Assembly: GCA_035546615.1 (NCBI GenBank)
Contig: DASZWM010000002.1
Span: 32,001 to 96,000, forward strand
Reading direction: 5' to 3'
Source: Minisyncoccota bacterium
GTDB taxonomy: Bacteria > Patescibacteriota > Minisyncoccia > Phycocordibacterales > SBAW01
DNA length: 64,000 bases
The first letter of the stretch is position 1. Each line of letters starts with the position of its first letter. Below, piece by piece: positions 3,305 through 54,842 of the stretch. The position numbers and the translations under genes were made by a program. The notes beneath the pieces were generated by a model. The model had not been told where the DNA came from. It worked only from the letters and a program-made list of their open reading frames with translations, and made no database searches.

Positions 3305-3787
3305 ATGAAACTATTTTTCTTCAAGCATAAGGAAGTCATGCGCGTGCTATTTACGGTGACAATATTCTTATTGCCAATCATAGCTCTTGGGGCAACTTCT
3401 TCGGGCGGCAATACGTTGCCCACGTCCTCCGGCGGCAACACCTTGCCGACCTCCTATGGCGGCAATACGGCAAATTCAGGCGACAACTGCGACCCCAGGG
3501 TCCAGGTATGCAACCCGCTCCAGTTCCATAGCATCTGCGGCCTGGTGACCGGCGTGTTGGATGCCATCATGGTAATCGGCATTCCGATAGCTATAATGTT
3601 CGTCGTATGGGCCGGATTTAAATTCGTCGTAGCGCAAGGCAATCCGGAATCCATTTCACAGGCTAAAACCAATTTTCTGCATGTCATCATCGGCATCGCC
3701 ATATTCGTGGGTGCTTCGCTAATCGCGCATGTCATCATGCAAACGATCGAAAATCTCGGAGTGACCGGCATTAGTTCCTGCCAATAA
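3305..3787 (+). CDS. TrbC/VirB2-like pilin family small membrane protein
   Basis: Signal peptide, SSGGNTLPTS repeats, Cys pair, then two hydrophobic helices (IPIAIMFVVWAG ... IGIAIFVGASLIAHV), the VirB2-type topology. Confidence 0.5.
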   Translation: MKLFFFKHKEVMRVLFTVTIFLLPIIALGATSSGGNTLPTSSGGNTLPTSYGGNTANSGDNCDPRVQVCNPLQFHSICGLVTGVLDAIMVIGIPIAIMFVVWAGFKFVVAQGNPESISQAKTNFLHVIIGIAIFVGASLIAHVIMQTIENLGVTGISSCQ

Positions 3788-3788
3788 T

Positions 3789-4145
3789 ATGCCGCTCACC
3801 GCCGCCGCTACGCTTTCAAACCAATCGTCGCTCAAAGATGTCGCATTATTCGCGGTGGAGATTCTCAACTCCCTGGTTCCGGTCCTCCTGGTGCTTATCC
3901 TCGTGCTCTTTCTCTGGATAGGGGTGCAGTATATCTACCGGGCCGACGGTGAGAACAAGGCCTCTACCCGGGAAGCGATTCTCTGGGGGCTTATAGCGCT
4001 ATTTGTCGCCTTCTCAGTGTGGGGAATAGTGCGCCTGGCTTGCAGCACGCTTCTTGGCACCAGCGAATGCAGTTCAGGCAGCAGCGGTGGAGGGGGAAAT
4101 GCAAACCAGGCGCCGCTCAATATCATTCCCGAATCGGCCCGCTAA
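3789..4145 (+). CDS. pilin-like small membrane protein (paralog)
   Basis: Two TM helices with the REAILWGLIALFVAFSVWGIVRL motif shared with the neighbours. Confidence 0.4.
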   Translation: MPLTAAATLSNQSSLKDVALFAVEILNSLVPVLLVLILVLFLWIGVQYIYRADGENKASTREAILWGLIALFVAFSVWGIVRLACSTLLGTSECSSGSSGGGGNANQAPLNIIPESAR

Positions 4146-4224
4146 GCTAAAAACTATCCACACGGCCGCCTTGTGCCGGAGCGCCCCGCGGCATACAGTT
4201 AAGCCATACCCATTTAATACTCGT

Positions 4225-4572
4225 ATGAAAAAAACAGCACTTATCTCATCTCTTTTGTTCGCCTTGCCGGCGTTCGCCTTCGCTCAGGTGCAGGGTAACA
4301 ACCTCCAGGGGCTTATCGCATGGCTGGGCGATACGCTCAATATGCTCATTCCGGTCCTTATCGCGCTCGCGCTCGTGGCATTCTTCTGGGGATTGGTCCG
4401 CTACGTTTGGGGTGCAGGCGGCGAAGGCGCAGCTGACGGCAAGAGCATCATGATAGCAGGGCTCCTTGGCCTTTTCATCATGGTGTCCGTCTGGGGCATC
4501 ATCAAGCTCGCGCAGAATACCCTTGGCGTTAACAACAGCAACGCTCCTCAATATCCGCAGGTTCCGCGCTAA
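4225..4572 (+). CDS. TrbC/VirB2-like pilin family protein (paralog)
   Basis: MKKTALISSLLFALPAFAFA signal peptide, two TM helices, GLLGLFIMVSVWGIIKLAQNTLGV motif. Confidence 0.5.
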   Translation: MKKTALISSLLFALPAFAFAQVQGNNLQGLIAWLGDTLNMLIPVLIALALVAFFWGLVRYVWGAGGEGAADGKSIMIAGLLGLFIMVSVWGIIKLAQNTLGVNNSNAPQYPQVPR

Positions 4573-4578
4573 CCGGGT

Positions 4579-4878
4579 ATGAACAACGCGGCGGCGGTTA
4601 CCGTGTCGGGCCAGTGCATAGACAGCGCGCGGCTCTTTGCGGGCTGCCTGGCTGACCTCATCATCAATCCAATACTGCTGCTCATATTCGTAGCGGGGCT
4701 CGTCGTATTCATTTACGGCATTGTCGAGTTCGTCTGGGGCCTTTCCGCGAACGGCGAGGAAAAGGAGAAAGGGAAGCAGCACATGCTCTACGGCCTTATC
4801 GGCATGTTCATCATGGCGGCGGCCTTCAGCATCATAAAAATAATTGCCAACACGATCGGCGTCTCGGTGCCGCACTAG
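4579..4878 (+). CDS. pilin-like small membrane protein (paralog)
   Basis: MLYGLIGMFIMAAAFSIIKIIANTIGV is paralogous to the C-terminus of 4225..4572. Confidence 0.45.
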   Translation: MNNAAAVTVSGQCIDSARLFAGCLADLIINPILLLIFVAGLVVFIYGIVEFVWGLSANGEEKEKGKQHMLYGLIGMFIMAAAFSIIKIIANTIGVSVPH

Positions 4879-11169: not shown

Positions 11170-11934
11170 ATGGATCTCGAAAAGCTGACAAAACACCAAA
11201 TCGTCCTCCTAACCCTCCTGGTGTCCTTCGTCACGTCCATCGCTACCGGCATCGTTACCGTTTCCCTTATGGACCAGGCGCCGGCGGGCGTGACTCGGGT
11301 GGTGAATCAGATAGTCGAGCATACGGTAGAGAAGGTCGTGCCGGCCACGCAAAGCGCCGCCGCGATAACGACCACGGAAAAGACGGTTGTGGTGAAGGAC
11401 GACGACCTGGCCGCGCAGTCGATAGCGAAAGTGCAGAAGTCGATAGCGCGCGTGGTGCTTCCGGGCGGAAACGTTCTGGTCTCCCGCGGGATTATTATCG
11501 ATGCCAAGGGGACCGTGCTCGCCGACAAGGCGGCGCTTGCCGCGGCGAACGTTCGGAACTTCGAAGTCCTGCTGCCGGACGGGACCCGCGCTTCGGCCAA
11601 GTGGCGCGACCCGAAGGCAACCTCGACGCTCGCGACGCTGGATGTGAACGTCGGCACCTCGACCGGCTTCGCGCCGGCAACGATAGCCGACTCGAGTAAG
11701 CTTGCCCTGGGCCAATCCGTCATTCGCATAGGCGGAACGGGCGGCGACCAGGTAGGCACCGGTGTTGTTGCCTCGCTTCCCGGGGGCGCGGCGCATTCGG
11801 TGGACGCGAGCATTTCCTCGGCTACTCCCGGCTCGCTGCTTATGACTTTATTCGGCGAAGTCGTCGGCCTCTCGACCACGGCCGCGATACAAGCCGGCGG
11901 CAGCCTTTACACGACACTCTCGCTACCAAGCTAA
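11170..11934 (+). CDS. hypothetical membrane-anchored protein, possibly degenerate trypsin-like fold
   Basis: N-terminal TM; weak resemblance to HtrA-type protease cores but no GDSGG motif. Confidence 0.3.
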   Translation: MDLEKLTKHQIVLLTLLVSFVTSIATGIVTVSLMDQAPAGVTRVVNQIVEHTVEKVVPATQSAAAITTTEKTVVVKDDDLAAQSIAKVQKSIARVVLPGGNVLVSRGIIIDAKGTVLADKAALAAANVRNFEVLLPDGTRASAKWRDPKATSTLATLDVNVGTSTGFAPATIADSSKLALGQSVIRIGGTGGDQVGTGVVASLPGGAAHSVDASISSATPGSLLMTLFGEVVGLSTTAAIQAGGSLYTTLSLPS

Positions 11935-11947
11935 CTACTAAAAAACC

Positions 11948-14647
<2,700 letters not shown>

Positions 14648-15553: not shown

Positions 15554-15611
15554 TCCCGCGCAGCACATAACGCAAAAAGTCCTAGCAAGAGCTAAGACTT
15601 TTTGACGTTTG

Positions 15612-15694
15612 TGCGCCGGGGAGGATTCGAACCTCCGTAGCCCGAAGGCGACAGGTTTACAGCCTGTTGTAATTGACCACTCTACCACCGACGC
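15612..15694 (-). tRNA. tRNA-Tyr(GTA)
   Basis: Reverse complement GCGTCGGTGGTAGAGTGGTCAATTACAACAGGCTGTAAACCTGTCGCCTTCGGGCTACGGAGGTTCGAATCCTCCCCGGCGCA; long variable arm. Confidence 0.85.
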
Positions 15695-15735
15695 GTTTCA
15701 ATAGAACGTTCTTACTTTACACTGTTTGCTTTTCC

Positions 15736-15766
15736 TTGTCAGCAGGCGAAAATTGGGTGCTACAAT
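15736..15766 (+). promoter_or_regulatory. putative sigma70-like promoter (TTGTCA...TACAAT); the transcript may be leaderless
   Basis: ttgtca-19nt-tacaat ending 6 nt before the ATG at 15773. Confidence 0.3.
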
Positions 15767-15772
15767 ATTGGC

Positions 15773-16873
15773 ATGCGCAATAGGGGTGCCGTACTCATAT
15801 TTGCGGGAGGGCTGCTCTTTACCCTCTTGCCGTTTATCGCCTCGGCCGCCGGGATTGTTCCATGTGGCGATACCACGGGCCTTGCGCCAGGTACTCCTCA
15901 GTATTACGCGGCCGCAACAAGTTGTCAGGCATGCAGCGTAATTCAACTGATTCAGACCCTTATTAACTTCATGATAGGACTCTCCATTCCTATCGCGATG
16001 GCGCTCTTCGCCTGGGCCGGCGTCCTGTATTTTACAGCCGCTACCAAGGAGGAGAATATATCAAAGGCAAAGAGCATTTTCCGCAGCGTATTTGTCGGAT
16101 TCATCATAGTTCTCGGCGCATACCTTATGGTAGAGACGCTCCTGCACGCCATTCTTAATCAGGATTACTTTACCGGCTGGAACAAGATCGAATGCGTTGA
16201 TAATACCAAGCGCCCAACCCAGGGCACGCTCGGTCAACTGATAAATGAAGTAATAGGCCATCCGGAAGATTCTTTAGTTGTTGGGAAGGCTCCTGTCGCG
16301 GTAAGCGATCCGTCTACATGTACCGGCAAACTGAGCTACGACAGCTCTATCAATCAGTATTACTGCTTGAATACAGTCAGCGGCATGGTCAGTCAAACAG
16401 GCTCTGGACAGTGTGCGCCCGGCAGCATACAAGCTGCTGCTGCGGCGGGAGGATATCCCATTACACCAGCACAAGCTCAGACCTTTTCCTGCCTTGCGGC
16501 TCCGGAAAGCGGTTGCCAAGGGAATCCTGGCCAAGCCAGGACGCCGACCGGCGACCCGACAAGCGCTTCCGGCCATTTTCAGATCGTCCTTGGCCTCAAT
16601 GATCAGTGTCATAATCTGAATATTCCTGCATGCACCCAGGCTGCGCAAGCAGCCGGCTATTCGGTAAGCGGGAATCTCAATTGCTCCAGCCACTTCAGGG
16701 GAGGCGTTCCTATAGACGCAGTAGGACAGGCATGCAAGGCGGCGGCAAGCAACTTTACCTGCAATGCTTCGGCTGCGGCTTGTCTGGTAACGCAGAATCC
16801 AAGCTTTAGCGACTGGACGGCGGACCCTCGCAGCAGTTCACAGAAATCATGCGTCAATACGTATAATCATTAG
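15773..16873 (+). CDS. TrbC/VirB2-like pilin domain fused to a large Cys-rich C-terminal extracellular domain
   Basis: N-terminal 130 aa paralogous to 3305..3787 (C..C, IPIAMALFAWAG, ISKAKS, two TM helices), followed by about 230 aa with many Cys/Gly/Ala/Ser. Confidence 0.5.
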   Translation: MRNRGAVLIFAGGLLFTLLPFIASAAGIVPCGDTTGLAPGTPQYYAAATSCQACSVIQLIQTLINFMIGLSIPIAMALFAWAGVLYFTAATKEENISKAKSIFRSVFVGFIIVLGAYLMVETLLHAILNQDYFTGWNKIECVDNTKRPTQGTLGQLINEVIGHPEDSLVVGKAPVAVSDPSTCTGKLSYDSSINQYYCLNTVSGMVSQTGSGQCAPGSIQAAAAAGGYPITPAQAQTFSCLAAPESGCQGNPGQARTPTGDPTSASGHFQIVLGLNDQCHNLNIPACTQAAQAAGYSVSGNLNCSSHFRGGVPIDAVGQACKAAASNFTCNASAAACLVTQNPSFSDWTADPRSSSQKSCVNTYNH

Positions 16874-16876
16874 GAT

Positions 16877-17485
16877 ATGAAAAGCACTACTCTATATGGA
16901 CTTATAGGATTGGGGGTCATCGCAGTGCTTTTTGCGGGCATATGGATCTGGCGCACGACGTCCGCTGCGCCTGCGGAACAAATTCCCTCCAATGACGGAA
17001 CCCCGGTATCCATCGGCGGAAATTCCTCTTCTGTAAATGTTCCGGTAAACCCGTCAAATCCATCTTCCGGCAGGGATACGGAGCCGACTATCTCAATTAG
17101 CGGTCAAAACGGAAGTTCTTTCGTAACGAAAGACTTCATCCATAACGGGGAGACCGCTTCTGACGTGGTAAATCCGGGCAATTACTATCTGGCAGGCTCT
17201 ATCGGATACTGCCTTGCTGACGGCAGATGTCCGGCAGGAGCCACCACTACGGATTTTAACGTGAGCTATGACAGCAACCACAGCTCATTCAGTATATTGT
17301 TGCTGGAAGAACCGCTGGGCCAATCCCGACTCCATGCCGAAACATTCCTTGAGGAAAAGCTCGGCCTTACGGAGGCTCAATTGTGCGGCCTCAATTATTG
17401 GCTGGGCACGACCTATTGGGTAAACGAGATCTACGCCGGCAAGAACCTCGGATTCAGCTTCTGCCCGGGCGCGACCCAGCTCTAG
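16877..17485 (+). CDS. hypothetical membrane-anchored extracellular protein
   Basis: N-terminal TM and a Ser/Asn/Pro-rich linker; translationally coupled to the upstream gene. Confidence 0.4.
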   Translation: MKSTTLYGLIGLGVIAVLFAGIWIWRTTSAAPAEQIPSNDGTPVSIGGNSSSVNVPVNPSNPSSGRDTEPTISISGQNGSSFVTKDFIHNGETASDVVNPGNYYLAGSIGYCLADGRCPAGATTTDFNVSYDSNHSSFSILLLEEPLGQSRLHAETFLEEKLGLTEAQLCGLNYWLGTTYWVNEIYAGKNLGFSFCPGATQL

Positions 17486-25506: not shown

Positions 25507-28500
25507 TTACCCTTTTTCCACTTCGCTTGGCAAGCGCCCCGGCCAGCGGTACACGAGCGTCGGAATGAGAATGAGCGTCAGTATCATCGCGAAGGAAAGC
25601 CCGAAAAGAATGGCGAACGCCAGCGGCCCCCACAGGGCGGACGCGAAGGTGAGCGGTATCATGCCGATCACCGTGGTGATGGTCGTGAGGACGATGGGGC
25701 GCAGGCGCGAGGTCGCCGCCTCGACCACGATGTCGGAGAATGTGCGGCCCGCTCCCGCGTGGAGGCGCTGGAGTATGGAGTCCATGAGGATGATGGCGTG
25801 GTTGATAATGACGCCCGCGAGCGCAATGACGCCCAGAAGCGAGGAGAACGAGAGCGTCTGGCCGGTCAGCACCAGGCCGCCGAACACGCCGATGAGAGAA
25901 AGCGGGATAATGGCGAGCAGATACGTGGTGTAGCGGAATGAGTTGAAGGCAAGCACGAGAATGACGAACATAAGCGCCATGCCCGCCAACAGCGCGATAC
26001 CCATCTCGGCGAAGGACTGATTGGTCTCTTCGTTCTCGCCGCCGATAGATACCGTGACGCCCACGGGAAGCTCGACGCTCTTCATCTTCTCGTTGTACGC
26101 GGCAAGCACCGCTCCGGCGGTGTAGCCCGGCAGCGTATTGGCCGACAAGGTTACTATGCGCTCCCGGTCCTCGTGGTTGATTGTCGAGTCGTTGCGCGCC
26201 ACGCTTTCCTCAAGGAGCGAGCCGAGCAGTATCGTAGTCCCGCTCTGGGTGGTGATAGGCACCTGATGAAGCGCGTCTATGGTGGCGTTTGAGGCGTCAT
26301 GCGGGTCAATGTAGGACGGGTTTAGATTGAGAAGCACGTTTATGTCCACGTCGCGCTCGGCGCCCGAAATGGACGTTGCCTTCATGCCCGACACCGCGGT
26401 GCGCAGGGTAGAGGCCACTTGCGCGGCCGTCACGCCCGCCTGCGCGAGCCGCGAGCGGTCGATGCGAAGCTCGAACTGAACGGTCTCGTTCTTGTTTGAA
26501 GCGTCGACGCTGGTGGCGCCGGGTGTCGACTCGAGCACGCCGCGCGCGGCCGCCACCGCCGCATCCAGCGCGTCGCGGTCGGAGCCGAGGAACTTAATAA
26601 GTACGGGCGCGCCCACGGGCGGGCCGCCGGTCGGCTGGTCGGACGTTACCTTGGCGCTCCGGATGCCGGAAAGCTCTTTCCGGACTTGGCTCAGCACTTC
26701 GGTGCTGGTCTTCGAGCGGCCTTTCGGCAAATTGATGGTGAGGCTCGCAAATCGCGGATCGGACTGGGGATTGCCGCTGAATTCGCTGGTGCGGCCGACG
26801 GTCGTCACGAAGGACGCGATGTCGTGGTCGTTGTACAGCACTTCCTCCACCTGGCGCGCGACCAGATCGCTCTGATTGAGCGACGAGCCCGGCGGAAGCT
26901 CAATATCGGTATATAAAAAGTCTATGTCATCCTGCGGGAAAAAGCTCACGGGAAGCAGTCCCGCGATGGGCAGGGCGAGGGCCAGAACGAACGCGAGCGC
27001 CATGCCCCACAGGAAGCGGTTCTGGTTCTTCTTGTGATGCAGGAAGCTTTTCAGCTTCGCGGAGTACCAGGTACGCGCCGCCTCGGCGTACTCTTCCTGC
27101 TTGTCCAAGAGCCAGCCGCGCGCGCCTATCTTCTGCGAGAACATCATGGTGAGCGTCGGCACCAGCCCCAGCGCCACGAAAATGGAGGCGATGAGCACGA
27201 ATATGAGCGTGTACGGGATGCCGGCGATGAATTTGCCCACGATGCCCGAAATAAAGAAGAGCGGGAAGAACACCGCGACGGTCGTCATCGTGCCGCCGAT
27301 GAGCGGCCAAGCGTACTCGCGGAGGGCCTCGAAGGCAGCCACTTTTTTGTCGCCGAACGTGCGTATGCGGGTGTGTATGGCTTCGACGACGACGATGCCG
27401 GAGTCCACGAGGATGCCGATGGCGAGAATGAGCGAGAAGAGGGAAATAAAGTTGAGCGTGTTGCCGGTGTAGAGGAGCCCGACGAACGCGATAAGGAACG
27501 AAAGGGGAATGGAAAGGCCCGCGACTATCGCCTCGCGCCAGCCGATGGTCGCAAAGAGCACGAGCATCACGAGCACGACGGTCTCAAGCCCCGTGCGGGT
27601 AAGCTCGGTCAGGTCCTGCTGCACCTCGTCGCCGGCGTCCAGCGACACCACGACCTGGCTGCCGTCCAGAAGCCCTGCCTTGAGCGTATCAAGCCTTGCC
27701 TTCACCGCGCGGGTCACAGCGGTCACGTCCTGTCCGCGCACTTTGTATACCAAAAGGGTCATGGCCTGCTCGGAGGGCGCGCCCGCAACCGAGATGCGCG
27801 AGTAGGAGGTCGCCTTCTCGACGCCGTCGGACACGTCGGCGATATCGCGCACGTAGATGACCTGCCCGCCGACGTTCAGTATCGCCACCGAGCCGATGTC
27901 CTCGGTCGTATCGAAGCTGCCGTCGAAGGCGATATTGTAGTTGATGTCATTGACCTCGATGGAGCCCACCGGAAGCGACGAGTTCGCAGCGCCTATGGCC
28001 GCCACGACCTGGGGGAGCGAAATGCCGTAGCGCGCGAGGTCCTCCTTGCGCACGACGACGTCTATCTCGCGGTTGCGCACACCGGAGATGTCTACGCGCT
28101 GGACTCCCTTCACGGCCTGGAGCTCGTTCTGTACCTGATCGGCCAGTTCCGCCAGCTGGGCGAAGGGCTCGTTGGCGGAAATGGAGATTATCTGTATAGG
28201 CTGGTCGACGAAGTTCACGTCAGATACCGTCGGGTCCTTCGCTTCCGCCGGGAGGTCCACTTTCGCCTTATCGACCTCGTCCTTGAGCTTCTGGATGGAC
28301 TTGTCGAGGTCGGCCGACGCGAGGAACTGCACGGTCACGACCGAGATGCCGTCGCGCGATGTCGAGGTGAGCGTGTCGAGGTTCTCGATGTTGGCCAGAT
28401 GCTCTTCAAGCTTGTTAGTGACCAGGCGCTCGACGTCCTCGGCCGATGCGCCCGGAAGCACGGTCGATACGATGCCCACCGGGATGGATACTTCCGGCGC

Positions 28501-28611
28501 CGACTCCTTGGTGATGCGTACGGCCGCGAAGACGCCCGATATCGTGACCGCCGCGATGACGAGCAGGGTGAACTGGCGCTTTTCTATGAAGAATTTCCAG
28601 AATGACAGCAT
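25507..28611 (-). CDS. RND family efflux transporter permease (AcrB-like)
   Basis: 1034 aa, 12-TM RND architecture with two large periplasmic loops. Confidence 0.9.
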   Translation of the reverse strand: MLSFWKFFIEKRQFTLLVIAAVTISGVFAAVRITKESAPEVSIPVGIVSTVLPGASAEDVERLVTNKLEEHLANIENLDTLTSTSRDGISVVTVQFLASADLDKSIQKLKDEVDKAKVDLPAEAKDPTVSDVNFVDQPIQIISISANEPFAQLAELADQVQNELQAVKGVQRVDISGVRNREIDVVVRKEDLARYGISLPQVVAAIGAANSSLPVGSIEVNDINYNIAFDGSFDTTEDIGSVAILNVGGQVIYVRDIADVSDGVEKATSYSRISVAGAPSEQAMTLLVYKVRGQDVTAVTRAVKARLDTLKAGLLDGSQVVVSLDAGDEVQQDLTELTRTGLETVVLVMLVLFATIGWREAIVAGLSIPLSFLIAFVGLLYTGNTLNFISLFSLILAIGILVDSGIVVVEAIHTRIRTFGDKKVAAFEALREYAWPLIGGTMTTVAVFFPLFFISGIVGKFIAGIPYTLIFVLIASIFVALGLVPTLTMMFSQKIGARGWLLDKQEEYAEAARTWYSAKLKSFLHHKKNQNRFLWGMALAFVLALALPIAGLLPVSFFPQDDIDFLYTDIELPPGSSLNQSDLVARQVEEVLYNDHDIASFVTTVGRTSEFSGNPQSDPRFASLTINLPKGRSKTSTEVLSQVRKELSGIRSAKVTSDQPTGGPPVGAPVLIKFLGSDRDALDAAVAAARGVLESTPGATSVDASNKNETVQFELRIDRSRLAQAGVTAAQVASTLRTAVSGMKATSISGAERDVDINVLLNLNPSYIDPHDASNATIDALHQVPITTQSGTTILLGSLLEESVARNDSTINHEDRERIVTLSANTLPGYTAGAVLAAYNEKMKSVELPVGVTVSIGGENEETNQSFAEMGIALLAGMALMFVILVLAFNSFRYTTYLLAIIPLSLIGVFGGLVLTGQTLSFSSLLGVIALAGVIINHAIILMDSILQRLHAGAGRTFSDIVVEAATSRLRPIVLTTITTVIGMIPLTFASALWGPLAFAILFGLSFAMILTLILIPTLVYRWPGRLPSEVEKG

Positions 28612-28628
28612 GGGATGATGCGGCGGGA

Positions 28629-30158
28629 TTACTGCGCTACTTCTACCGTTTCCCTCGCGCGCAGGCCCCGGGCGTCCGTGACTATCAGCATGTCGGGAGT
28701 GGCGCCGTCGAGTATGACCACGCGGTCGCCGAGCAGCTCGCCTATCGTTACTGTATGCGCCACGAGCATATTGTTCGCGTCCACCGTAAAGACGCTCATG
28801 CCGCCCTGGCCAATCTTAAGCGCCGCAAGGGGAATGACGAGGCGCGCGGGAGCGGCGGCCGTGGCGGCGTTTTGCGCGCGGGCAAGCTCGACCGTGACCG
28901 ACTGGCCGTTGATGAGAGCGGTCGCGGAGCCGCTGATGCCGACGCGCACCTCTATTTTCTTGGTGACGGGGTCAATGGCGGGCGCGATGCGGGTTATGAC
29001 GCCGTCTGCCGAGCCGCCGAGCTTCGCCTTGCCGCCTACCGCAAGCTGGCGGGCGTCGGATTCGGTGACATAGGCTACCACTTCAAGCGCGCCGTTGTTG
29101 GCTACCGTAAGGACCGCGGAGCCGAGCTGGACGTAGTCGCCGCGCTTCAGCGACAGGGAATTGATAGTGCCGGAAATGGGGGCGCGGATGAGCGTATGCT
29201 CAAGGTTGGCGCGCGCGGAGGCGAGGCCCGCCTGGGCCTGCTTTACCGCCGCGGCGCTGACCGAGGCGTTTGCGCCGGTGCCCGCGATGCTCTGGCGGGC
29301 GCTGCCGAGCGCGGTTATGGAGGCGGTCACGGCCGTGCGCGCCGCGATAGTGGCAGCCTTATAGCCGTCCAGCACCGATGCGGTCACGACCTCGTCGGGC
29401 TCGCCGGCGTTAAGCGCGCGCAGGAGGGCATCGAGGAAGTTGCGCACCTGCTGGAGCTCGGCTTCGGTTTGAGCAAGCTCGCCGCTTTGGTCTGAGGCGG
29501 AAGAGATCTGCGCCGATGCGGCCTTCTGCCTGTCGAGCGCGGCATCGAGCGCGCTGCGCAGGCTTTCGGCCTCGCGTTTGGAGGCGGAATCTTCCGTCTT
29601 TACGCGCAGGTAATACGTGTGCGGCGTGGTATCCGGATTGATGAACATAGGGTCCGCCGCGTTGTGCACCGCGTTGTCTGCCGCCGCGTAGGCGGAGAGG
29701 AGCGCGCTTGCGGCGCTGGTGCCTGAAATGCCGGCGGAGGCCTGCGCCGCCTCGACGCCGGCCTGCGCCTGGAGCACCGCCGCGCGCTCGGACGCGTTCT
29801 CGACTTCCGCTACCACCGCGCCCGCGCCGACGTAGTCGCCGAGCTGGTAGTTGAGCGAGGTAATCTCGCCGGATTTCTCCGCGCGCACGGTAGCCTCGGA
29901 CTTGGAGCTCACGGTGCCCGCTACCGAAAGCCCGGAGGTCTGGTTGGAAAGGTCGGCGATGGAGCGCAGCTCAACGCTGCGGGTATTGTTCGGCGCCGCC
30001 GCTTCGGAAGCGCCGCCTGAGAACGCCGCGTGGAGGACGATAAGCAGGACGACCAGAACGCCCGCCCCCGCGGCGAGTTTTTTCCAGCCCAGACGCTTGG
30101 CTGTACGGGTCAGATACGAAACGAAGTCCTGGAGGCGCGCGAAAATAGATTGCAACAT
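28629..30158 (-). CDS. efflux RND periplasmic adaptor (membrane fusion protein, HlyD family)
   Basis: N-terminal TM, biotinyl/lipoyl-like hairpin (SGEITSLNYQLGDYV), long coiled coils, beta-barrel C-terminus. Confidence 0.8.
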   Translation of the reverse strand: MLQSIFARLQDFVSYLTRTAKRLGWKKLAAGAGVLVVLLIVLHAAFSGGASEAAAPNNTRSVELRSIADLSNQTSGLSVAGTVSSKSEATVRAEKSGEITSLNYQLGDYVGAGAVVAEVENASERAAVLQAQAGVEAAQASAGISGTSAASALLSAYAAADNAVHNAADPMFINPDTTPHTYYLRVKTEDSASKREAESLRSALDAALDRQKAASAQISSASDQSGELAQTEAELQQVRNFLDALLRALNAGEPDEVVTASVLDGYKAATIAARTAVTASITALGSARQSIAGTGANASVSAAAVKQAQAGLASARANLEHTLIRAPISGTINSLSLKRGDYVQLGSAVLTVANNGALEVVAYVTESDARQLAVGGKAKLGGSADGVITRIAPAIDPVTKKIEVRVGISGSATALINGQSVTVELARAQNAATAAAPARLVIPLAALKIGQGGMSVFTVDANNMLVAHTVTIGELLGDRVVILDGATPDMLIVTDARGLRARETVEVAQ

Positions 30159-30542: not shown

Positions 30543-31070
30543 CTAGTAGGCCCCATACTGCGGATTGACCGGCGTTGCGGCCTGCCGTCCATAATGCGCG
30601 TGATAGAGGCAATACTGATTCCTTTTTCCTCCCGTATCCGCGCCGCAGTACAGCGCGGGGCTCGTTTCCGTCTGGTCGCGCACGATAGTGTGACACATCC
30701 CTTCCTCAACCTGCAGGAGCGTCACGTTGATGCTCTTCGGTTGCGGGATTTCCATGACGGCACGGGGCAGCGCAGCCTGCCGCGCGGCTTCCGGATGCAG
30801 CTTGGGCGGCTCGCGCCTTGCTTTTATCCGTAACCGCATGAGCGCGGCATTGTTTGTTGAGCCTGTTCGCGGTTTGCGCGGCCGGGCCTGGCTGGGTGCG
30901 GGCTTCGGCCGTCCGGAAAGGTTGAGACGGTGGATTTTTCCAATGACGGCATTCGCCGTAACTCCGCCCAGCTGGGCGGCTATCTGGCTTTTGGAAAATC
31001 CCTCGCTCCAGAGCTTTTTGAGCAATTCAATGCGCTCGTCCGTCCAGCCATGATTCTTGGTAGAACCCAT
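30543..31070 (-). CDS. GcrA-family cell-cycle regulator-like protein
   Basis: N-terminus WTDERIELLKKLWSEGFSKSQIAAQLGGVTANAVIGKIHRLNLSGR and C-terminal Cys/His block (MCHTIV...YCGADTGGKRNQYCLYHAHY) match the GcrA (PF07750) pattern; 175 aa. Confidence 0.6.
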   Translation of the reverse strand: MGSTKNHGWTDERIELLKKLWSEGFSKSQIAAQLGGVTANAVIGKIHRLNLSGRPKPAPSQARPRKPRTGSTNNAALMRLRIKARREPPKLHPEAARQAALPRAVMEIPQPKSINVTLLQVEEGMCHTIVRDQTETSPALYCGADTGGKRNQYCLYHAHYGRQAATPVNPQYGAY

Positions 31071-39185: not shown

Positions 39186-40859
39186 ATGCCGTATTCGACT
39201 GATATGTCAGTGTATTTAGATTTGGGCGGCGCTTTAGCTGCTTTTGGCCTTTTATTTACTGTTTACCAACTTCGGCGACCAAGGTGGGAGGTAATTTTGC
39301 GAATTAGAAATAATTGGCAAAGTGATATTTTCTGGATATTAGGTTTTATAGGTTTGTTTTATGCCCTAGTTGGCGTGCTTGTATCTGAACTCCCAATTAA
39401 TTCTTTCAACTTTCCGTTTAATACCCCATTACTTTACGAGGTGGCAGCGTACCTATCGTTTGTAGCTTCACCTCTGTCATTAATATATTTTGCGACCAAT
39501 GACAAAAAGTTATTTAACGCAAAAACTGCAGAAACTTTCTACGAAGTAATCTTGCAAGAAATTTCTAAATCTAGTGATGTAAACCTAGATGCGGCATTGG
39601 AAATAGTCTTGAGAAACTTTAATGAAATTTGTGATGCAACTCTTCAAAATACAGATAAAGATTTGCGCTCATACGCAAGGTCAATTTTAGACGTTGTACT
39701 AAGTGACGAGTCTGTAGTAAAAGTGCTCACTACCAAGAGGCTTGATGCTTTGCAATATATCTTTTATTTAATAAAGGAAAAGAATATCACTCGTGCTCAT
39801 TCGGGGATAGGTATACCGAGAATTGTAAATAATCTTTTCTTTGACGAAAATTCCTTCCTCTATAAACAACTCGATAGAAAAGGGTTGGCACTTTCATCAA
39901 ATATATACACGAGCATTTTTGAATCTCCAGTTATACTCACCAACTTTGATCTGTTTGGGTACCCGACTATCGGTTATGGAATGAGTAGAGATACTGGCAA
40001 TGCTGGTATAAGAGTATTTATCAAAGCCTTATCTCTAAGCATTGAAACTTACTTTAAAACAGGGAGCGTGCCTCCGAGGCACATTAATAATGGGTTGTCT
40101 TACTTAAGCAATATATTTGGAGGGTTGTGTGCAAAAATTGCCATCAAAGAAAATAAAGGTGTTGATACTAAATCTAGTTTAGAAGATGAGTGGTGGGGCT
40201 TACATCAAATAGCCTCCTTTTTAGGACATGATTATATTTTTCTTGCCTATGAAGAAAAACTAAATCAGCAAGTTCTGGAAAACGAAAAAACTGCCCATGA
40301 GGCTCGATTTGGCTCAAATGCAACTATAAATGAGGGTATTGCAGCTGTTATCTATAAAGCTTTTGAGCAGCTTTCACAAATTAAAAAAACCACAGACATA
40401 TATCATACAGTTCTGGAGCTCTTGCATGGAATGATGAATGAGCCTACCTACAAGGAAGGTTATAGACCGCCTTTTGAAAAGAGACTCTGGCAACAAATCG
40501 GTGCAAATGTTGCTAAACGTTATTATCCTGCCGTCGTTAGAACGTATTTAACCTTTGTTGGGTTCTGTCTTGGCGCAGATGCAAACCAACGACAAGGTTG
40601 GATTGGCGAACAAGCGGAACGTATGAGACGACTTTTGTATATTGACCTTAAGCCTTTATTTGATAAGAATGAAAAAATGATAAATAAGGAATTTATGAAA
40701 GACGTTTTGCTCCCAGATTCCATGTCCTATAAAGATGGTAAATTTACTTATACCTCTGGATTCGGAGAAGGTACAACCACTGAAGTAGCACCACCCCCTG
40801 AGGGTGCGACATCAGGTTTGGAAGGAATAGATTTAGAGAGTATGCCTCACTTCGTCTAG
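39186..40859 (+). CDS. hypothetical membrane protein (AT-rich island gene 1; 557 aa)
   Basis: Three N-terminal TM helices and a large soluble domain with no recognizable family. Codon usage and GC clearly differ from the flanks. Confidence 0.5.
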   Translation: MPYSTDMSVYLDLGGALAAFGLLFTVYQLRRPRWEVILRIRNNWQSDIFWILGFIGLFYALVGVLVSELPINSFNFPFNTPLLYEVAAYLSFVASPLSLIYFATNDKKLFNAKTAETFYEVILQEISKSSDVNLDAALEIVLRNFNEICDATLQNTDKDLRSYARSILDVVLSDESVVKVLTTKRLDALQYIFYLIKEKNITRAHSGIGIPRIVNNLFFDENSFLYKQLDRKGLALSSNIYTSIFESPVILTNFDLFGYPTIGYGMSRDTGNAGIRVFIKALSLSIETYFKTGSVPPRHINNGLSYLSNIFGGLCAKIAIKENKGVDTKSSLEDEWWGLHQIASFLGHDYIFLAYEEKLNQQVLENEKTAHEARFGSNATINEGIAAVIYKAFEQLSQIKKTTDIYHTVLELLHGMMNEPTYKEGYRPPFEKRLWQQIGANVAKRYYPAVVRTYLTFVGFCLGADANQRQGWIGEQAERMRRLLYIDLKPLFDKNEKMINKEFMKDVLLPDSMSYKDGKFTYTSGFGEGTTTEVAPPPEGATSGLEGIDLESMPHFV

Positions 40860-46760: not shown

Positions 46761-47636
46761 GTGAAGCATCTTCTTTATATAGGAATATGCGCCGCGGCCT
46801 TCTTCGCCTTTTTTCCTCAGGCCTCTTTTGCCGCCGCAGTTACGGCTCCTTCAATACTCGTTTCTTCAAGCACTCCGCTTCAGGGCGAGCCGGTGCTCGT
46901 GACGTTTGAGGGCGTCACCGCCACATCTTCCATACAAAGCATTTCGTATAACGGCGGCAAGCCGGGCACCTTCTTATACGCGGGCAAGGTCCATGCGCTT
47001 TTGGCTGTCGACCTGCATCAGAAGCCGGGGCCGTATGCTGTCTCGGCGCTTCTGGCCACGGGCAAGAAGCTCGAAAAGATTATTACGGTCATAGAGCGGC
47101 CGCAGGTAAAAGCCCCGCTGGGCATTCCGGAAAAGCTCGGCGGAAATACGGCGGCGAGCCAGGCGACGCTGGTATCCACGCTTGCGAGCGAGAATGCGAG
47201 CCTTGCGAACATTTGGACCGGCACGAAGGCGTTCTGGTCGCAGAACTTCCAGTGGCCGCTTAAAAGTATTACCGTGACCGACCCGTACGGCTACTCGCGG
47301 GAAACCGGCGCGTATTCGATCGCCCATAAGGGCACCGACCTTCGCGCGGCGGAAGGCACGCCCGTTGCGGCGATAAACCGCGGGGTAGTGCGCGTTGTGC
47401 ACGAGTATCGCGACTACGGAAAGACGATAGTGGTCGACCACGGGCTCGGGCTGATGTCCTTTTACATGCATCTCTCAAAAATAAATGTCGTCGCGGGCCA
47501 GCTGGTGCTCCCGGGGCAGATAATGGGCTTGAGCGGCCATACCGGCTATGCCGACCAGCCGCACCTTCATCTCACCATCCGAATTAACGGAATCTCCATA
47601 GACCCGGTGCTGTTCTTCAAGCTCTTTAATTTATAG
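46761..47636 (+). CDS. M23 family metallopeptidase
   Basis: HKGTDL...HTGYADQPHLHLTI signature (HxxxD...HxH). Confidence 0.75.
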   Translation: MKHLLYIGICAAAFFAFFPQASFAAAVTAPSILVSSSTPLQGEPVLVTFEGVTATSSIQSISYNGGKPGTFLYAGKVHALLAVDLHQKPGPYAVSALLATGKKLEKIITVIERPQVKAPLGIPEKLGGNTAASQATLVSTLASENASLANIWTGTKAFWSQNFQWPLKSITVTDPYGYSRETGAYSIAHKGTDLRAAEGTPVAAINRGVVRVVHEYRDYGKTIVVDHGLGLMSFYMHLSKINVVAGQLVLPGQIMGLSGHTGYADQPHLHLTIRINGISIDPVLFFKLFNL

Positions 47637-47651
47637 TGGTACGCTAAGGGT

Positions 47652-48350
47652 ATGAAAAAACTAATAGGCCTGCTGTTCGTCGCTGGGGCCGTGGCGGTGA
47701 ATATTCCGTACGCGCTCCTTATCTCCAATTTCAATTATCCGGATATCCTGCGCGAGCCGGCGGGGACGGTGCTGACGCAGTTCGCGGCGGGAGGCGATAC
47801 TCTTATATACACCTGGCTTTTCTTCGCGCTCTCGGGCCTGCCGCTCTTGTTCGCTACGATCCTGCTCGGCCGGCTGTGGAACGACGCGTCGAAGGCGCTG
47901 GTCGGCCTCGCGACGACCTTCGGGGTTATCGCGCTCACAGCCCAGCTTATCGGCCTGCTTAGGTGGGTGTTCGTCGTTCCGATGCTGGCGCGAGAGTACG
48001 CCGCGGCAGGCTCGTCGGACGCGCTCAAAGAGGCTTCGGTCGTCGCGTTCCAGACGGTGAACCAGTTCGGCGGCGTGCTCCTGGGCGAATACGTCGGCCA
48101 GCTCTTCAGCATCATCTCGATGCTCCTGTTCAGCATCGTTATCTTCCGGGAGAGGCTTCTGAGCCGGGCGGTGGCATGGCTCGGATTCGCGGCGTCGGCG
48201 GTGTACTTGCTGGCCCAGGGTGAGCTCTTCCATACGGTCGTTCCGGCGTTCCCGGTACTTGATATAGCCGGCCTTTTGGGCAGCATGCTGTGGATACTCT
48301 GGCTTATCGCGCTCGGCGCTTTCCTCATTCTCCGCAAGGACCGTTCCTAA
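47652..48350 (+). CDS. DUF4386-like polytopic membrane protein
   Basis: Six predicted TM helices; no catalytic motif. Confidence 0.35.
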   Translation: MKKLIGLLFVAGAVAVNIPYALLISNFNYPDILREPAGTVLTQFAAGGDTLIYTWLFFALSGLPLLFATILLGRLWNDASKALVGLATTFGVIALTAQLIGLLRWVFVVPMLAREYAAAGSSDALKEASVVAFQTVNQFGGVLLGEYVGQLFSIISMLLFSIVIFRERLLSRAVAWLGFAASAVYLLAQGELFHTVVPAFPVLDIAGLLGSMLWILWLIALGAFLILRKDRS

Positions 48351-48453
48351 TAAACGGCTTAGATACAGGCTTATTCGGGCACTATTGCCCGTACCCCGCC
48401 TGTGCTTTAATAGATAGGTTAGAGGGGCACCCGATTAGCCGTAATAATTTTCC

Positions 48454-49359
48454 ATGAAAAAATCACTCATTGCAGTTATTGTCATTATCCTCGTCATTAT
48501 TCTCGGCGCCGGGGTCTACTTTTGGATGCAGCAATCCTCCAACACCGCAAACGTAACTCCGCCTGATACGACCGGCACTACGCCGGACACTACGCAAGCG
48601 ACCACGACCGCGGAGGGAGCGTCGGTGGTCATCGGCAAGTCGGCCGGAGGCAACGACATCACCGCGTACAACTACGGCACCGGCGATACCCGCATCCTCT
48701 TCGTCGGGGGCATACACGGCGGCTACGAGTGGAACACCTCGCTCGTCGCGTACCAGCTCATGGATTATCTCGAAGCGCATCCGGACGCGATTGCAAAGAA
48801 CGAAACCGTTACCGTCATCCCCGTGGTCAATCCGGACGGCCTTAAGAAGGTAGTCGGCACCGCAGGGCCGTTTACCGCGGCGGACGTTACCGTCTCCTCG
48901 GCCGCGACCGTGCCGGGCCGCTTTAACGCCAACACCGTGGATCTTAACCGCAACTTCGACTGCGACTGGCAGGCGGAGGGCACGTGGCAGAATACGAAGG
49001 TCAGCGGCGGCACTTCCGCCTTCTCCGAGCCGGAATCGCAGGCCATCAAGGCATACGTCGAGTCGCATGATCCGGCGGCCGTCATAGTCTGGTACTCTTC
49101 GGCGGGCGGCGTATATGCCTCGAGCTGCCACAACGGCGTTTCCGCCGCCACGGCCGCGCTCACAAAGACATTCGCCGACGCCTCCGGCTATCCGGCGCAC
49201 CAGACCTTCGACTTCTACGAGATAACCGGCGACATGGTCAACTGGCTCGCCAAGAACCAGATCCCGGCCATCAGCGTATTGCTCACCAACCACACCGACA
49301 CCGAGTGGACTAAGAACTGGAAGGGCATCGCGGCGGTCCTCAACGCCTACGCCGAGTAA
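48454..49359 (+). CDS. M14 family zinc carboxypeptidase-like protein
   Basis: GGIHGGYEW...VDLNRNFDC...SEPESQA motifs. Confidence 0.6.
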   Translation: MKKSLIAVIVIILVIILGAGVYFWMQQSSNTANVTPPDTTGTTPDTTQATTTAEGASVVIGKSAGGNDITAYNYGTGDTRILFVGGIHGGYEWNTSLVAYQLMDYLEAHPDAIAKNETVTVIPVVNPDGLKKVVGTAGPFTAADVTVSSAATVPGRFNANTVDLNRNFDCDWQAEGTWQNTKVSGGTSAFSEPESQAIKAYVESHDPAAVIVWYSSAGGVYASSCHNGVSAATAALTKTFADASGYPAHQTFDFYEITGDMVNWLAKNQIPAISVLLTNHTDTEWTKNWKGIAAVLNAYAE

Positions 49360-50243
49360 TGCCGCCTCTCGCTAAGCGCATTCTTATCGCGGTAATCGCC
49401 CTCGCCGTCTTGGGCGGGGGGATCGCCGCATGGATGGCGCTAAATAAAAAAGCTCCCGTTCCGGCCGCTCAGGCGCCGGTTGAGAAGCCCGGTCCTGTAG
49501 CCGAAGTCATCGGTTCTTCGGTGGAAGGCCGCAGCATCACTGCCTACACCTACGGCAAGGGCGCGACAAAGCTCCTATTCGTTGGCGGCATGCACGGCGG
49601 CTACGAGTGGAACAGCGTGCTCCTGGCATACCAGTTCATGGATTACCTTGATGCAAATCCCGCGGCCGTTCCCTCAAATCTCTCTATAACGGTCGTTCCA
49701 TCCATCAATCCCGATGCGGTGTACGAAGCGGTAGGCAAGGAAGGCCGATTCACTGCAGCCGACGCGACGACGAGCGCTTCGGCGCTGGCGGCGGCGCGCT
49801 TCAACGCCCACAACGTGGACCTCAACCGCAACTTCGATTGCCATTGGGCACCGACGAGCATGTGGCAGAACAAGACCGTAAGCGCGGGCACCGCGGCATT
49901 CTCCGAGCCGGAAGCGCAGGCGCTCCGCGGCTTCGTCGCCAGGTATCGCCCTGCGGCGGCGGTGTTCTGGCACAGCGCGGCCGGAAGCGTGTACGCTTCC
50001 GAGTGCGATGCGGGCGTCCTGCCGGGCACAATGGATGCGATGAACGCATACGCGAAGGCCGCCGGCTATCCCGCGGTCGCGTCGTTCGACGCGTATCCGA
50101 TAACCGGCGACTCGGAAGGCTGGCTCGCCTCGCAGAACATCCCGGCTATAACAGTGGAGCTCTCAAGCCACACCGCGGTGGAGTGGGACAAGAACCTCGC
50201 GGGCATCAAGGCGCTCATCGCGCTCTATGCGTCCGCGCGGTAG
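49359..50243 (+). CDS. M14 family carboxypeptidase-like protein (tandem paralog)
   Basis: Same motifs, about 50% identical by eye to 48454..49359; start overlaps the upstream stop (taATG). Confidence 0.6.
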   Translation: MPPLAKRILIAVIALAVLGGGIAAWMALNKKAPVPAAQAPVEKPGPVAEVIGSSVEGRSITAYTYGKGATKLLFVGGMHGGYEWNSVLLAYQFMDYLDANPAAVPSNLSITVVPSINPDAVYEAVGKEGRFTAADATTSASALAAARFNAHNVDLNRNFDCHWAPTSMWQNKTVSAGTAAFSEPEAQALRGFVARYRPAAAVFWHSAAGSVYASECDAGVLPGTMDAMNAYAKAAGYPAVASFDAYPITGDSEGWLASQNIPAITVELSSHTAVEWDKNLAGIKALIALYASAR

Positions 50244-50308
50244 AGTACTTTACTTAGTAAAGTATCGGCTGGTATACTGTACGCATATCACTAACTTTCA
50301 GTCATCCT

Positions 50309-50923
50309 ATGCGACTCTATTATTCTCCCGGTTCGTGCGCGCTGTCCCCGCATATCGTCGCGCGCGAAGCGGGGCTCGACGTCGAGATCGAAAAGGTCGT
50401 CTTCTCCGCCGACGGCCGCCGCACGCAGGAGCACGACGAGAACTTCTACGACGTGAATCCGCGCGGCTACGTGCCGGCCCTCAAGCTTGATTCCGGAGAC
50501 ATTCTGACCGAGGGCGTGGCTATCGTCCAATACTTGGCGGACCAGGCGCCCGGCGCCGGCCTAATGCCCAAGCATCAGAGCGGGGACTATTACAAAGCGC
50601 TCAGCTGGCTCACGTTCATCAGCTCGGAAGTGCATAAGGGCTTCAGCCCGTTCTTCCGCTCCAATCTGCCGGAGGAAGAGAAAAAGATAGCGCTGGACCG
50701 GCTGCTCAAGCGCTTTGACTGGATAAACGGCGCGCTTGAGGGAAACGATTATCTGGTGGGCGGAGCGTTCAGCATTGCGGACGCGTATTGCTACACCATC
50801 CTGCGCTGGCACCCGAAGGCCGGCATTGATCTGGGCAAGTATCCGAATATCAAGGAATACTACGAGCGCATCGGCTCGCGCCCTGCGGTCAAGACGGCGC
50901 TTAAGGAGGAAGGACTCGAATAG
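50309..50923 (+). CDS. glutathione S-transferase
   Basis: MRLYYSPGSCALSPHI thioredoxin-like N-domain plus alpha-helical C-domain. Confidence 0.8.
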   Translation: MRLYYSPGSCALSPHIVAREAGLDVEIEKVVFSADGRRTQEHDENFYDVNPRGYVPALKLDSGDILTEGVAIVQYLADQAPGAGLMPKHQSGDYYKALSWLTFISSEVHKGFSPFFRSNLPEEEKKIALDRLLKRFDWINGALEGNDYLVGGAFSIADAYCYTILRWHPKAGIDLGKYPNIKEYYERIGSRPAVKTALKEEGLE

Positions 50924-51193
50924 CCTCTAGGCCCGATTTAAGAGCCTTCATCCTTTTCAGGACGAACTGTGGTAGACTGCTTATCTGGTCGCTTCTTACC
51001 AGCCGTTCGCTAATCGATATTGACTTTATGACAGACGAAACAACGAAGCCCGCAGCACCGGTCGAGATTCCTCCGATGGAACAGCCGGCGACTACGACCC
51101 CTCCTCAGGCGGACACGACGACCGCCTAAGCGAAAAACACCGGCCACGCGCCGGTGTTTTTCGTGCACCCCTTCAGTATTCCTTCATCGATGC

Positions 51194-53855: not shown

Positions 53856-54680
53856 CTACCTGACCACGGCCCTCTTCTGCCGTATGTTGGCCTCCATGTT
53901 CGCTATTTCCGCGTCGAATGCCGGATCGTTCGACCGGCGCAGCTTCACCACGTTCACGCTATGGAGAATGGTCTTTGAATCCCGGTCCCCGAAGTAGGAG
54001 GACATCTTCGCATAGATCATGCCGGTCATGGACCTCACCAAAAAAATCGCGACGTGACGCGCGAGCCGGTATCTGCCGACCTTGATATCGGATTCAAGAT
54101 CGGAAACCGTTACGTCATAGTGCAGGGCAACAGTTTCCTTTATCAGCGTGATGAGGTCTTCCTCGTCCTCCGTGTTTTTCTGGCTCTCGAGTACCGCCTC
54201 AATCCCGTCGAAGCTCTCGAGAACGACAGGCGCTGCTGAGAGCGGCTGTGCAGCCGGCTTTTCAGAAGATGCGTCTTCAGGAGTATCCTCCCGGGGCGGC
54301 GGCTTAGCCTTCGCCTCGGTCTTGGGGTTTTTTGTCGCAGCGGCCTTTTTGGCGGCTTCTTGCGCAGCCGTGGCCGCTTGATAGATGCGGCCCTTTTGCG
54401 TCGCGATGCTGCGCACCGCAACCAGCACCTCCGTCACGCCGTTGCGCTCTGCCTGCCAGGCGGCAAGCAGGCGCGCGCGATAGATGTCGAGTATCTGTCT
54501 GCGCAGGCCCGCTACGGGGACGCTGACACTGACGGTTGCCTGCGTTATTCCTTCAAGTTCCATTCGCCGGAAGAAGGCACTGAAGGCATCCTCGCCCAGA
54601 TCCTTTTTCAGGCGTTCCTGCACGCGCGACCACTGCTTTGCCGCGTTCGTGCCTTCCCCCACGGGGGTTTGAGCATCCAT
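53856..54680 (-). CDS. DnaA-like protein with DnaA N-terminal domain I and C-terminal DNA-binding domain IV but no AAA+ domain
   Basis: N-terminus WSRVQERLKKDLGEDAFSAFF..MEL (domain I pattern); C-terminus LARHVAIFLVRSMTGMIYAKMSSYFGDRDSKTILHSVNVVK (domain IV FGGRDHTTV-like). ATG at 54680 with a GGAG RBS; only 274 aa. Confidence 0.55.
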   Translation of the reverse strand: MDAQTPVGEGTNAAKQWSRVQERLKKDLGEDAFSAFFRRMELEGITQATVSVSVPVAGLRRQILDIYRARLLAAWQAERNGVTEVLVAVRSIATQKGRIYQAATAAQEAAKKAAATKNPKTEAKAKPPPREDTPEDASSEKPAAQPLSAAPVVLESFDGIEAVLESQKNTEDEEDLITLIKETVALHYDVTVSDLESDIKVGRYRLARHVAIFLVRSMTGMIYAKMSSYFGDRDSKTILHSVNVVKLRRSNDPAFDAEIANMEANIRQKRAVVR

Positions 54681-54842
54681 CCCTATACTCCTTTTGCCTC
54701 TTAGGCGCCCCAAGGCGCGAAAACAAAATCCAAATACACTTAAACACATCCTCCTGGATTTTCAAGTGAATGGGGCAGGGCAGATTGACAATATCCGTTC
54801 TATTATATATAATCATAAGCGACTGAATCTCTTTTAGTCGTT

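Follow-up and report, generated by a model that had tools for sequence, protein, structure and literature searches.

The wall-cutting enzymes closest to the gene considered here are the VirB1-type lytic transglycosylases of type IV and type III secretion systems (T4SS and T3SS), such as A. tumefaciens VirB1 and EtgA, and the membrane-anchored hydrolases of monoderm conjugation systems, such as PrgK of pCF10, TraG of pIP501 and the CD419/Orf14-like proteins of Tn916 (PMC12102498). The same 2025 survey, devoted to type IV secretion in Patescibacteria, catalogues VirB2-like pilins (arrays included) and VirB1 homologues separately, reports that most genomes with VirB2-like pilins have no recognizable VirB1, and concludes that pilus biogenesis may need no VirB1 or that other glycosidases may substitute for it. 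We have analyzed a 64-kb stretch of contig DASZWM010000002.1 (the window), whose source is an uncultured ultrasmall bacterium of the Paceibacteria (Candidate Phyla Radiation, or CPR/Patescibacteria), and describe in it a gene that fuses a VirB2-like pilin module to a lysozyme-like domain. The product is probably a membrane-anchored envelope enzyme that cuts the cell wall in the manner of VirB1 from a VirB2-type anchor. A VirB2-lysozyme fusion is not mentioned in the survey (PMC12102498), and in the literature on PF18896 and related terms we found no paper describing one. The architecture is implicit in the precomputed Pfam annotations of some homologues and is therefore not a new category; what is new is a probable wall hydrolase of the secretion-system type with an unusual anchor and a partner gene.

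The fusion is encoded by a single, complete open reading frame (ORF), the ATG of which is the earliest possible start codon after the upstream stop. The features of the ORF and of the gene that follows it are these:

15773-16873, plus strand: fusion ORF, a pilin-like membrane module joined to a lysozyme-like domain, 366 aa plus stop.
15773-15850, plus strand: predicted Sec signal peptide, aa 1-26 (MRNRG, a hydrophobic core, then ASA/AG as the probable cleavage site).
15944-16159, plus strand: two-helix membrane hairpin, with transmembrane helix TM1 at about aa 58-90, a basic loop TKEENISKAKS and TM2 at about aa 102-129; the PF18895 match covers aa 58-121.
16160-16387, plus strand: post-membrane segment and variable linker, aa 130-205, with a conserved W136/C141 motif and then a stretch of low model confidence.
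16388-16870, plus strand: lysozyme-like (SLT_3/SLT-related) domain, aa 206-366, with 10 Cys.
16505-16507, plus strand: codon of Glu245, the predicted catalytic acid, in an E-S motif at the end of a helix.
16571-16582, plus strand: G267-H-F-Q270, corresponding to G-L-M-Q / G-I-x-Q in lytic transglycosylases and lysozymes.
16877-17485, plus strand: partner gene, 202 aa, with an N-terminal transmembrane helix and a conserved Cys-containing ectodomain, 4 nt after the fusion stop.

The C-terminal extension (aa 138-366, 229 aa) is rich in small and polar residues (Ala 12.7%, Ser 11.4%, Gly 9.6%, Thr 7.4%, Gln 7.4%), in agreement with a preliminary description of the gene that had remarked on its Gly, Ser, Ala and Gln content; the 'at least 17' cysteines given there for the extension are in fact 13, with 16 in the whole protein and 10 in the folded C-terminal domain. 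The same description took the extension for a disulfide-rich adhesin or tip domain, whereas its homologues identify it as a lysozyme-like, putative glycosidase domain with an invariant Glu at the catalytic position. Among 29 full-length members in the family alignment, eight match SLT_3 (PF18896, 'Lysozyme like domain') and five match SLT (PF01464); when the C-domains are taken in isolation, 15 of 24 match SLT_3 at E<=0.1 (best 1.5e-8), and one protein of T4SS_pilin plus SLT_3 architecture, P0010, scores 28.2 against a gathering cut-off of 27. Searched against the PDB, the family profile finds as its best sequence match a c-type lysozyme, 6ukc_A (E 3.6e-4), with the CIAxxES of the family aligned on CIAEFES of the lysozyme and thus on its catalytic Glu; the T3SS transglycosylase EtgA is a weak, non-significant match in the same search (E 1.0). 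Structure prediction with AlphaFold2 (AF2) gave a confident model of the isolated C-domain (pLDDT 90.2, pTM 0.87), in which, as in lysozymes, a helix stops at Glu245 and is followed by short beta-strands.

Residue conservation across 169 representatives aligned to the family hidden Markov model (HMM) points in the same direction. Glu245, Gly267 and Gln270 are invariant in 169 of 169, and Ser246 is present in 144, a pattern of a predicted catalytic Glu, a following Ser and a downstream G-x-x-Q; in the model it is this Glu that closes the helix. The equivalent of lysozyme Asp52, in contrast, is Ala265 here, and across the representatives it is Ala in 123, Ser in 44 and never Asp; of the two catalytic carboxylates of GH22 (PF00062) only the Glu is present. 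This single-carboxylate pattern is that of family-1 lytic transglycosylases and goose-type lysozymes. The resemblance to c-type lysozymes and Rpf-type domains, which extends to the CIAxxES...G(I/L)FQI pattern and to a predicted small, disulfide-rich lysozyme fold, is limited by the missing Asp52 equivalent, by the bacterial source and by the predicted membrane tether. Two cysteines, Cys279 and Cys337, are gained and lost together (r 0.72; both in 78 and neither in 64 of the representatives), which suggests a disulfide specific to a subgroup.

The anchor of the window protein also carries other domains. In two homologues, P0027 and P0030, the C-domain is a classical SLT (PF01464, E 1e-10 and 3e-12), and P0034 matches PF01464 too. 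The N-modules of P0027 and P0030 are almost superimposable on that of the window protein (MRNR..., LVPC..CQAC, LSIPIAI..FAWAGVLYFTSA), P0027 shows the motifs ES...GLMQ...AYNSG, and neighbours downstream are shared with the window, namely L33 in the P0027 contig and MiaA and ParB in the P0030 contig. That an analogous enzyme is found on the same anchor argues strongly, if indirectly, for cleavage of glycan strands at the membrane surface as the function under selection. In one orthologous locus, L002, the partner is followed by a third gene (11618-12520, plus strand), the product of which combines a T4SS_pilin N-module (E 1.7e-9) with a poly-Gly linker and a Cys-rich C-domain of about 130 aa. 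This C-domain, a second kind of domain on the anchor, has no match in Pfam, the PDB or PHROGs, and a suspicion that it is a metallopeptidase found no support in these three collections.

The anchor itself belongs to Pfam family PF18895 (T4SS_pilin), which is matched by aa 58-121 with 28.4 bits (gathering score 26.6) and by 27 of the 29 aligned homologues. The N-terminal 137 aa of the window protein align with the 160-aa pilin encoded at 3305-3787 at 31% identity over 84 aa (BLASTP, E 7e-12), an alignment that takes in IPIAMALFAWAG/IPIAIMFVVWAG and ISKAKS/ISQAKT. Both the VirB2-like character of the module and the paralogy of its first ~130 aa to the pilin at 3305, which the preliminary description had proposed, are borne out by these matches. 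The free paralogue at 3305 in turn matches TrbC/VirB2 (PF04956) at E 1e-4, under the cut-off.

Hydropathy places hydrophobic segments at aa 4-32, 54-90 and 100-129, and the AlphaFold model has helices at 2-25, 42-88 and 93-127, an arrangement of signal peptide and two hydrophobic helices separated by a short charged loop. The signal peptide, the cleavage of which is a prediction, is indicated by the hydropathy, by the model helix 2-25 and by the aligned MR.R and hydrophobic N-termini of the homologues; between it and TM1 lies a Cys-containing segment that is predicted to be outside. If the loop is placed in the cytoplasm, all that follows residue 130 would be outside the membrane. W136 and C141 are nearly invariant or invariant in the homologue alignment, and beyond them the linker varies in length among homologues, with insertions, and falls below pLDDT 50 at aa 146-173 of the model. 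The fusion thus shares with VirB2/TrbC and the small PF18895 pilins a signal peptide, a two-helix hairpin, the PF18895 match and paralogy to a four-gene array in the window; it differs from them in its 366 aa, two to four times the usual size, in its predicted enzymatic C-domain and in not lying beside virB4.

The array consists of four small T4SS_pilin-like genes in tandem at 3305-4878 on the plus strand (3305-3787, 3789-4145, ~4225-4572 and 4579-4878), with PF18895 E-values from 6e-9 to 2e-3, two of the genes exceeding the cut-off score and two falling short of it. Similar 'VirB2 arrays' have been reported for Patescibacteria, and in L002, too, small T4SS_pilin genes are found a few genes upstream of IF-2.

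The joining of the two modules is genuine and shared by divergent relatives, homologues in the same syntenic position being only 37-47% identical. A scan of the genome collection with the whole protein gave 2 loci, a word-indexed homologue search with the C-domain alone gave 4 proteins, and single-sequence searches with the extension gave only chance dynein matches in the PDB and nothing in Pfam. A profile search of 1.84 billion representatives returned 488 clusters at E<=1e-3, of which 212 reached E<=1e-10, and in these clusters the C-domain stands nearly always at the C-terminus of proteins of 310-360 aa. By local HMMs, the pilin-like N-domain is also present in 156 of the 169 cluster representatives with the C-domain, and the 13 that do without it are mostly short and look like fragments; within this lineage, then, a fusion of this size is the common architecture and not the unusual one that the preliminary description had supposed. 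The record of an identical protein reads 'pilin [Candidatus Paceibacterota bacterium]', and an independent Logan assembly also holds the identical 366-aa product.

Dozens of homologues at 35-50% identity cover 84-100% of the query. In six other contexts the gene order is fixed as ClpB, the fusion, a protein of ~185-214 aa without a Pfam match, and MiaA, the last seen wherever the contig reaches far enough, with ParB, RelA/SpoT and TopA beyond it in the longer contigs. The orthologues therefore show the same fusion at a conserved position, and a stop after the pilin domain is not the rule among them.

We suggest that the protein would be exported by the Sec pathway and, after removal of its signal peptide, would insert into the cytoplasmic membrane as a hairpin of the T4SS_pilin type with both ends outward. 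The variable and probably flexible linker would then hold the lysozyme-like domain on the outer face, and disulfides may form in the segments that lie outside. There the single catalytic Glu, E245, followed by Ser and assisted by G267-x-x-Q270, would act without a second acidic residue, for which reason the most likely reaction is cleavage of the strand between N-acetylmuramic acid and N-acetylglucosamine (MurNAc-GlcNAc), as in family-1 lytic transglycosylases and goose-type lysozymes. The tethered enzyme would cut peptidoglycan glycan strands near the membrane, in the wall of the cell itself or in that of a host. In the first case the cuts would open space for machines that span the envelope, or would permit division, as VirB1 classically does. 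A housekeeping function is favoured by the constant place of the gene in the core genome; an offensive one still draws some plausibility from the dedicated partner and from the way of life of the group.

Compared with the VirB1-type and monoderm hydrolases, the fusion has in common a predicted glycan-cleaving domain of lysozyme fold with a catalytic Glu-Ser, an N-terminal hydrophobic anchor predicted to keep this domain at the outer face of the membrane, and close relatives with a true SLT domain. It differs from them in that the anchor is a signal peptide with a T4SS_pilin hairpin and not a single transmembrane helix, in that the enzyme domain is Cys-rich, SLT_3-like and without AYNxG, and in that the gene lies among housekeeping genes with a dedicated partner and not in a T4SS cluster.

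Several results weigh against an enzyme of this type and have to be set beside the evidence above. The C-domain of the window protein itself matches no Pfam, PDB, NCBIfam or PHROG model, and SLT_3 finds no match in this protein even at E<=1. Foldseek searches of the PDB returned no match for the full-length model and, for the C-domain model, only non-significant c-type lysozyme matches (best E 3.2), and hhalign aligns the family with hen lysozyme at the level of the active-site motif only (probability 2.3%). The N-domain profile recovers from the PDB only non-significant transmembrane hairpins and no solved VirB2/TraA pilin, so that the label 'pilin' derives from the name of the Pfam family. 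The neighbours of the fusion gene are housekeeping genes throughout, with IF-2, RbfA, a cysteine-desulfurase-like aminotransferase and ClpB upstream, together with a tRNA-Tyr on the minus strand, and L33, tRNA-Trp, MiaA, PyrF, ParB, RelA/SpoT, TopA, an RND pump and DprA downstream. A scan of the larger ORFs across the window brought up no VirB4, VirB6 or VirD4 family member, and the called genes of the syntenic loci match none of these families either; in neither set, therefore, does the gene stand together with genes for T4SS assembly such as virB4 and virB6, and its link to a T4SS comes down to the name of its pilin family.

With these results in view we place the C-domain, from its sequence, as a divergent member of the lysozyme-like superfamily nearest to SLT_3, and file it under neither PF01464 nor GH22. 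The predicted fold is that of lysozyme at the superfamily level. Of the family-1 lytic transglycosylase motifs, E-S is present, G-H-F-Q is partial and [AS][YF]NxG is absent; PF01464 is not matched by the window protein, and PF00062 is matched by one of the 24 C-domains (E 0.0087). The lack of an AYNxG motif and the motif-level hhalign result lead to a placement near SLT_3, and because of the latter we make no claim to GH22 membership. The positional orthologues of the fusion do match SLT_3, with which they have E-S and G-x-x-Q in common; the window protein, unlike PF18896 members, reaches no SLT_3 score, is annotated 'pilin' only, and falls in a 10-Cys subgroup with an extra insertion of ~25 residues (NLNIPxCTxAAxxAGY).

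Given the 4-nt gap, the partner gene is probably co-transcribed with the fusion. Its ectodomain has three invariant cysteines (Cys112, Cys170 and Cys196), and its homologues, 261 or more in number, ~190-200 aa long and all 'hypothetical', come exclusively from Paceibacteria, Parcubacteria or Kaiserbacteria. Partner profiles built from 4 and from 40 sequences found no meaningful match in the PDB or Pfam, and neither the fusion nor the partner has a match in NCBIfam or PHROGs. The partner adjoins every Cys-rich-type fusion examined, including the divergent P0020, beside which it is 39% identical, and by tblastn it is absent from both SLT-type loci (P0027 and P0030), so that it tracks the enzyme domain and not the pilin module, a rule drawn from n=2 loci of the contrasting SLT type. 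This pattern suggests that the partner is a cognate regulator, inhibitor or cofactor of the enzyme domain.

An inhibitor of this kind has a part in one alternative, in which the two genes form an effector-immunity pair: the lysozyme-like domain would attack the peptidoglycan of a host or of a competing cell, either on contact or after being cut free within the linker, and the partner would be an immunity protein or inhibitor that shields the own wall. The tight linkage with probable co-transcription, the covariation with Cys-rich loci and the divergence of the partner alongside P0020 are all as such a pair would have them. We nevertheless regard this explanation as unlikely, because the pair, vertically conserved and always at the same core-genome site amid housekeeping genes, does not look like the variable loci typical of effectors, because in Pfam, PDB, NCBIfam and PHROG searches the partner showed no resemblance to known families of lysozyme inhibitors or immunity proteins, and because the covariation has only two counter-examples behind it.

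The N-module raises a second alternative, a lytic pilus in which the fusion co-polymerizes with the free pilins of 3305-4878, at the tip or along the shaft, and its muramidase opens the host wall in episymbiosis. In F-type pili the two ends of the pilin lie at the surface of the filament, and the long, probably flexible linker would let the C-domain sit outside a filament; the N-module and the free pilins also fall in the same Pfam family. T4SS pilins are among the top-expressed unknown genes in Patescibacteria cultures (PMC10936435), and a role in breaking through host envelopes has been proposed for lytic transglycosylases (PMC11665869). Against this stand the lack of evidence that PF18895 proteins form filaments, a related monoderm class of T4SS without pili (PMC12102498), the T4SS assembly genes not found nearby, the sterically demanding load of 230 aa per subunit, and a partner that follows the enzyme domain and not the pilin module; we consider a lytic pilus distinctly unlikely. 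It is quite improbable that a filament of such 'lytic pilins' brings the muramidase to a host cell for attachment or for uptake of nutrients or DNA, with the partner as its immunity protein or inhibitor.

The earlier view of the extension as a non-enzymatic, disulfide-rich adhesin or tip, which might still bind glycans through a lysozyme fold as alpha-lactalbumin does, has become highly improbable, since the invariant Glu and G-x-x-Q and the swapping-in of a bona fide SLT enzyme domain in relatives argue for selection for catalysis. An assembly or sequencing frameshift that joined a pilin gene to a separate gene downstream is refuted, along with the idea of split orthologues, by the identical Logan product, the many full-length homologues, the two-domain representatives and the shared synteny.

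The promoter of the fusion indicates how the gene would be expressed, probably together with its partner. The two elements upstream of the ORF are these:

15736-15741, plus strand: -35-like hexamer TTGTCA, 19 nt upstream of the -10 and weakly placed; not conserved in orthologous loci.
15758-15766, plus strand: extended -10 TGcTACAAT (TG at 15758-15759, TACAAT at 15761-15766), ending 6 nt before the ATG.

Both hexamers and the 6-nt distance are as reported in the preliminary description, which had added that the mRNA may be leaderless. The usual -35/-10 spacer is 16-18 nt, and because of the 19-nt spacer a consensus scan did not report the site; the TG makes an extended -10 with less need for a -35. 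As the -10 ends 6 nt before the ATG, transcription would start at or beside the start codon, and no Shine-Dalgarno motif lies between the two.

Of 5 orthologous loci, the upstream regions of which otherwise look unrelated by eye, 4 retain the pattern TGcTAnnnT-N6-ATG: L002 has TACAAT-N6-ATG, L005 has TGcTATGAT-N6-ATG, and in L006 the motif TGcTACACT-N6-ATG leads to an in-frame ATG that precedes the called start by four codons; L004 is off the pattern. In the window, TAnnnT ends exactly 6 nt before the start of 12 of 66 ORFs, against ~1 expected (binomial P ~1e-9 to 1e-12), and Shine-Dalgarno-like motifs are rare at these ORF starts (n=66). The suggestion of a leaderless mRNA is supported by both counts: the transcript of the fusion gene is likely to be leaderless, with the partner, a membrane-anchored protein of ~200 aa and a possible regulator, inhibitor or cofactor, probably on the same transcript. 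A leaderless start appears to be the general mode for the first genes of operons in this organism and is not peculiar to the fusion gene, and the window illustrates that many of its transcripts probably begin at the start codon.

A promoter-like site on the minus strand, CTGACA-17-TAAAGT at 15714-15742, faces the tRNA-Tyr (15611-15694). Its -35, CTGACA, overlaps the TTGTCA of the plus strand, and two divergent promoters may thus share the 78-nt intergenic region.

Other genes of the window deserve mention in their own right. A homologue of GcrA, a cell-cycle regulator familiar above all from Alphaproteobacteria, is encoded in this Paceibacteria genome at 30543-31070 on the minus strand (PF07750, E 1e-32). 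An AcrB-type RND transporter (1034 aa, E 1.7e-183) and an HlyD-type adaptor (509 aa) occupy 25507-30158 on the same strand, and no outer-membrane factor was noticed near them, which is curious in a lineage generally regarded as having no outer membrane. A short DnaA-like protein of 297 aa (53856-54749, minus strand) has DnaA_N and the C-terminal helix-turn-helix of DnaA without an AAA+ match. Cell-wall peptidases form a run at 46761-52609 on the plus strand, with an M23 peptidase (46761-47636), two M14 carboxypeptidases (48454-50243) and an M23 protein with PG_binding_1 (51194-52609), and a DUF4386 gene (47652-48350) lies inside this run. The largest unannotated gene of the window is an ORF of 557 aa (39186-40859, plus strand) with no Pfam or NCBIfam match.

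The T4SS_pilin hairpin emerges from this comparison as a general membrane anchor for extracellular domains, and this is a caution against reading every PF18895 match as a filament subunit. It also has a practical consequence, for a lysozyme-like or SLT enzyme that is annotated only as 'pilin' escapes searches for VirB1. The fusion is a candidate for the 'missing' wall-cutting enzyme of the Paceibacteria secretion apparatus. Together, the conserved core gene and its dedicated partner offer two testable targets for work on how ultrasmall bacteria that have a wall and depend on a host reshape that wall or break through the wall of the host.

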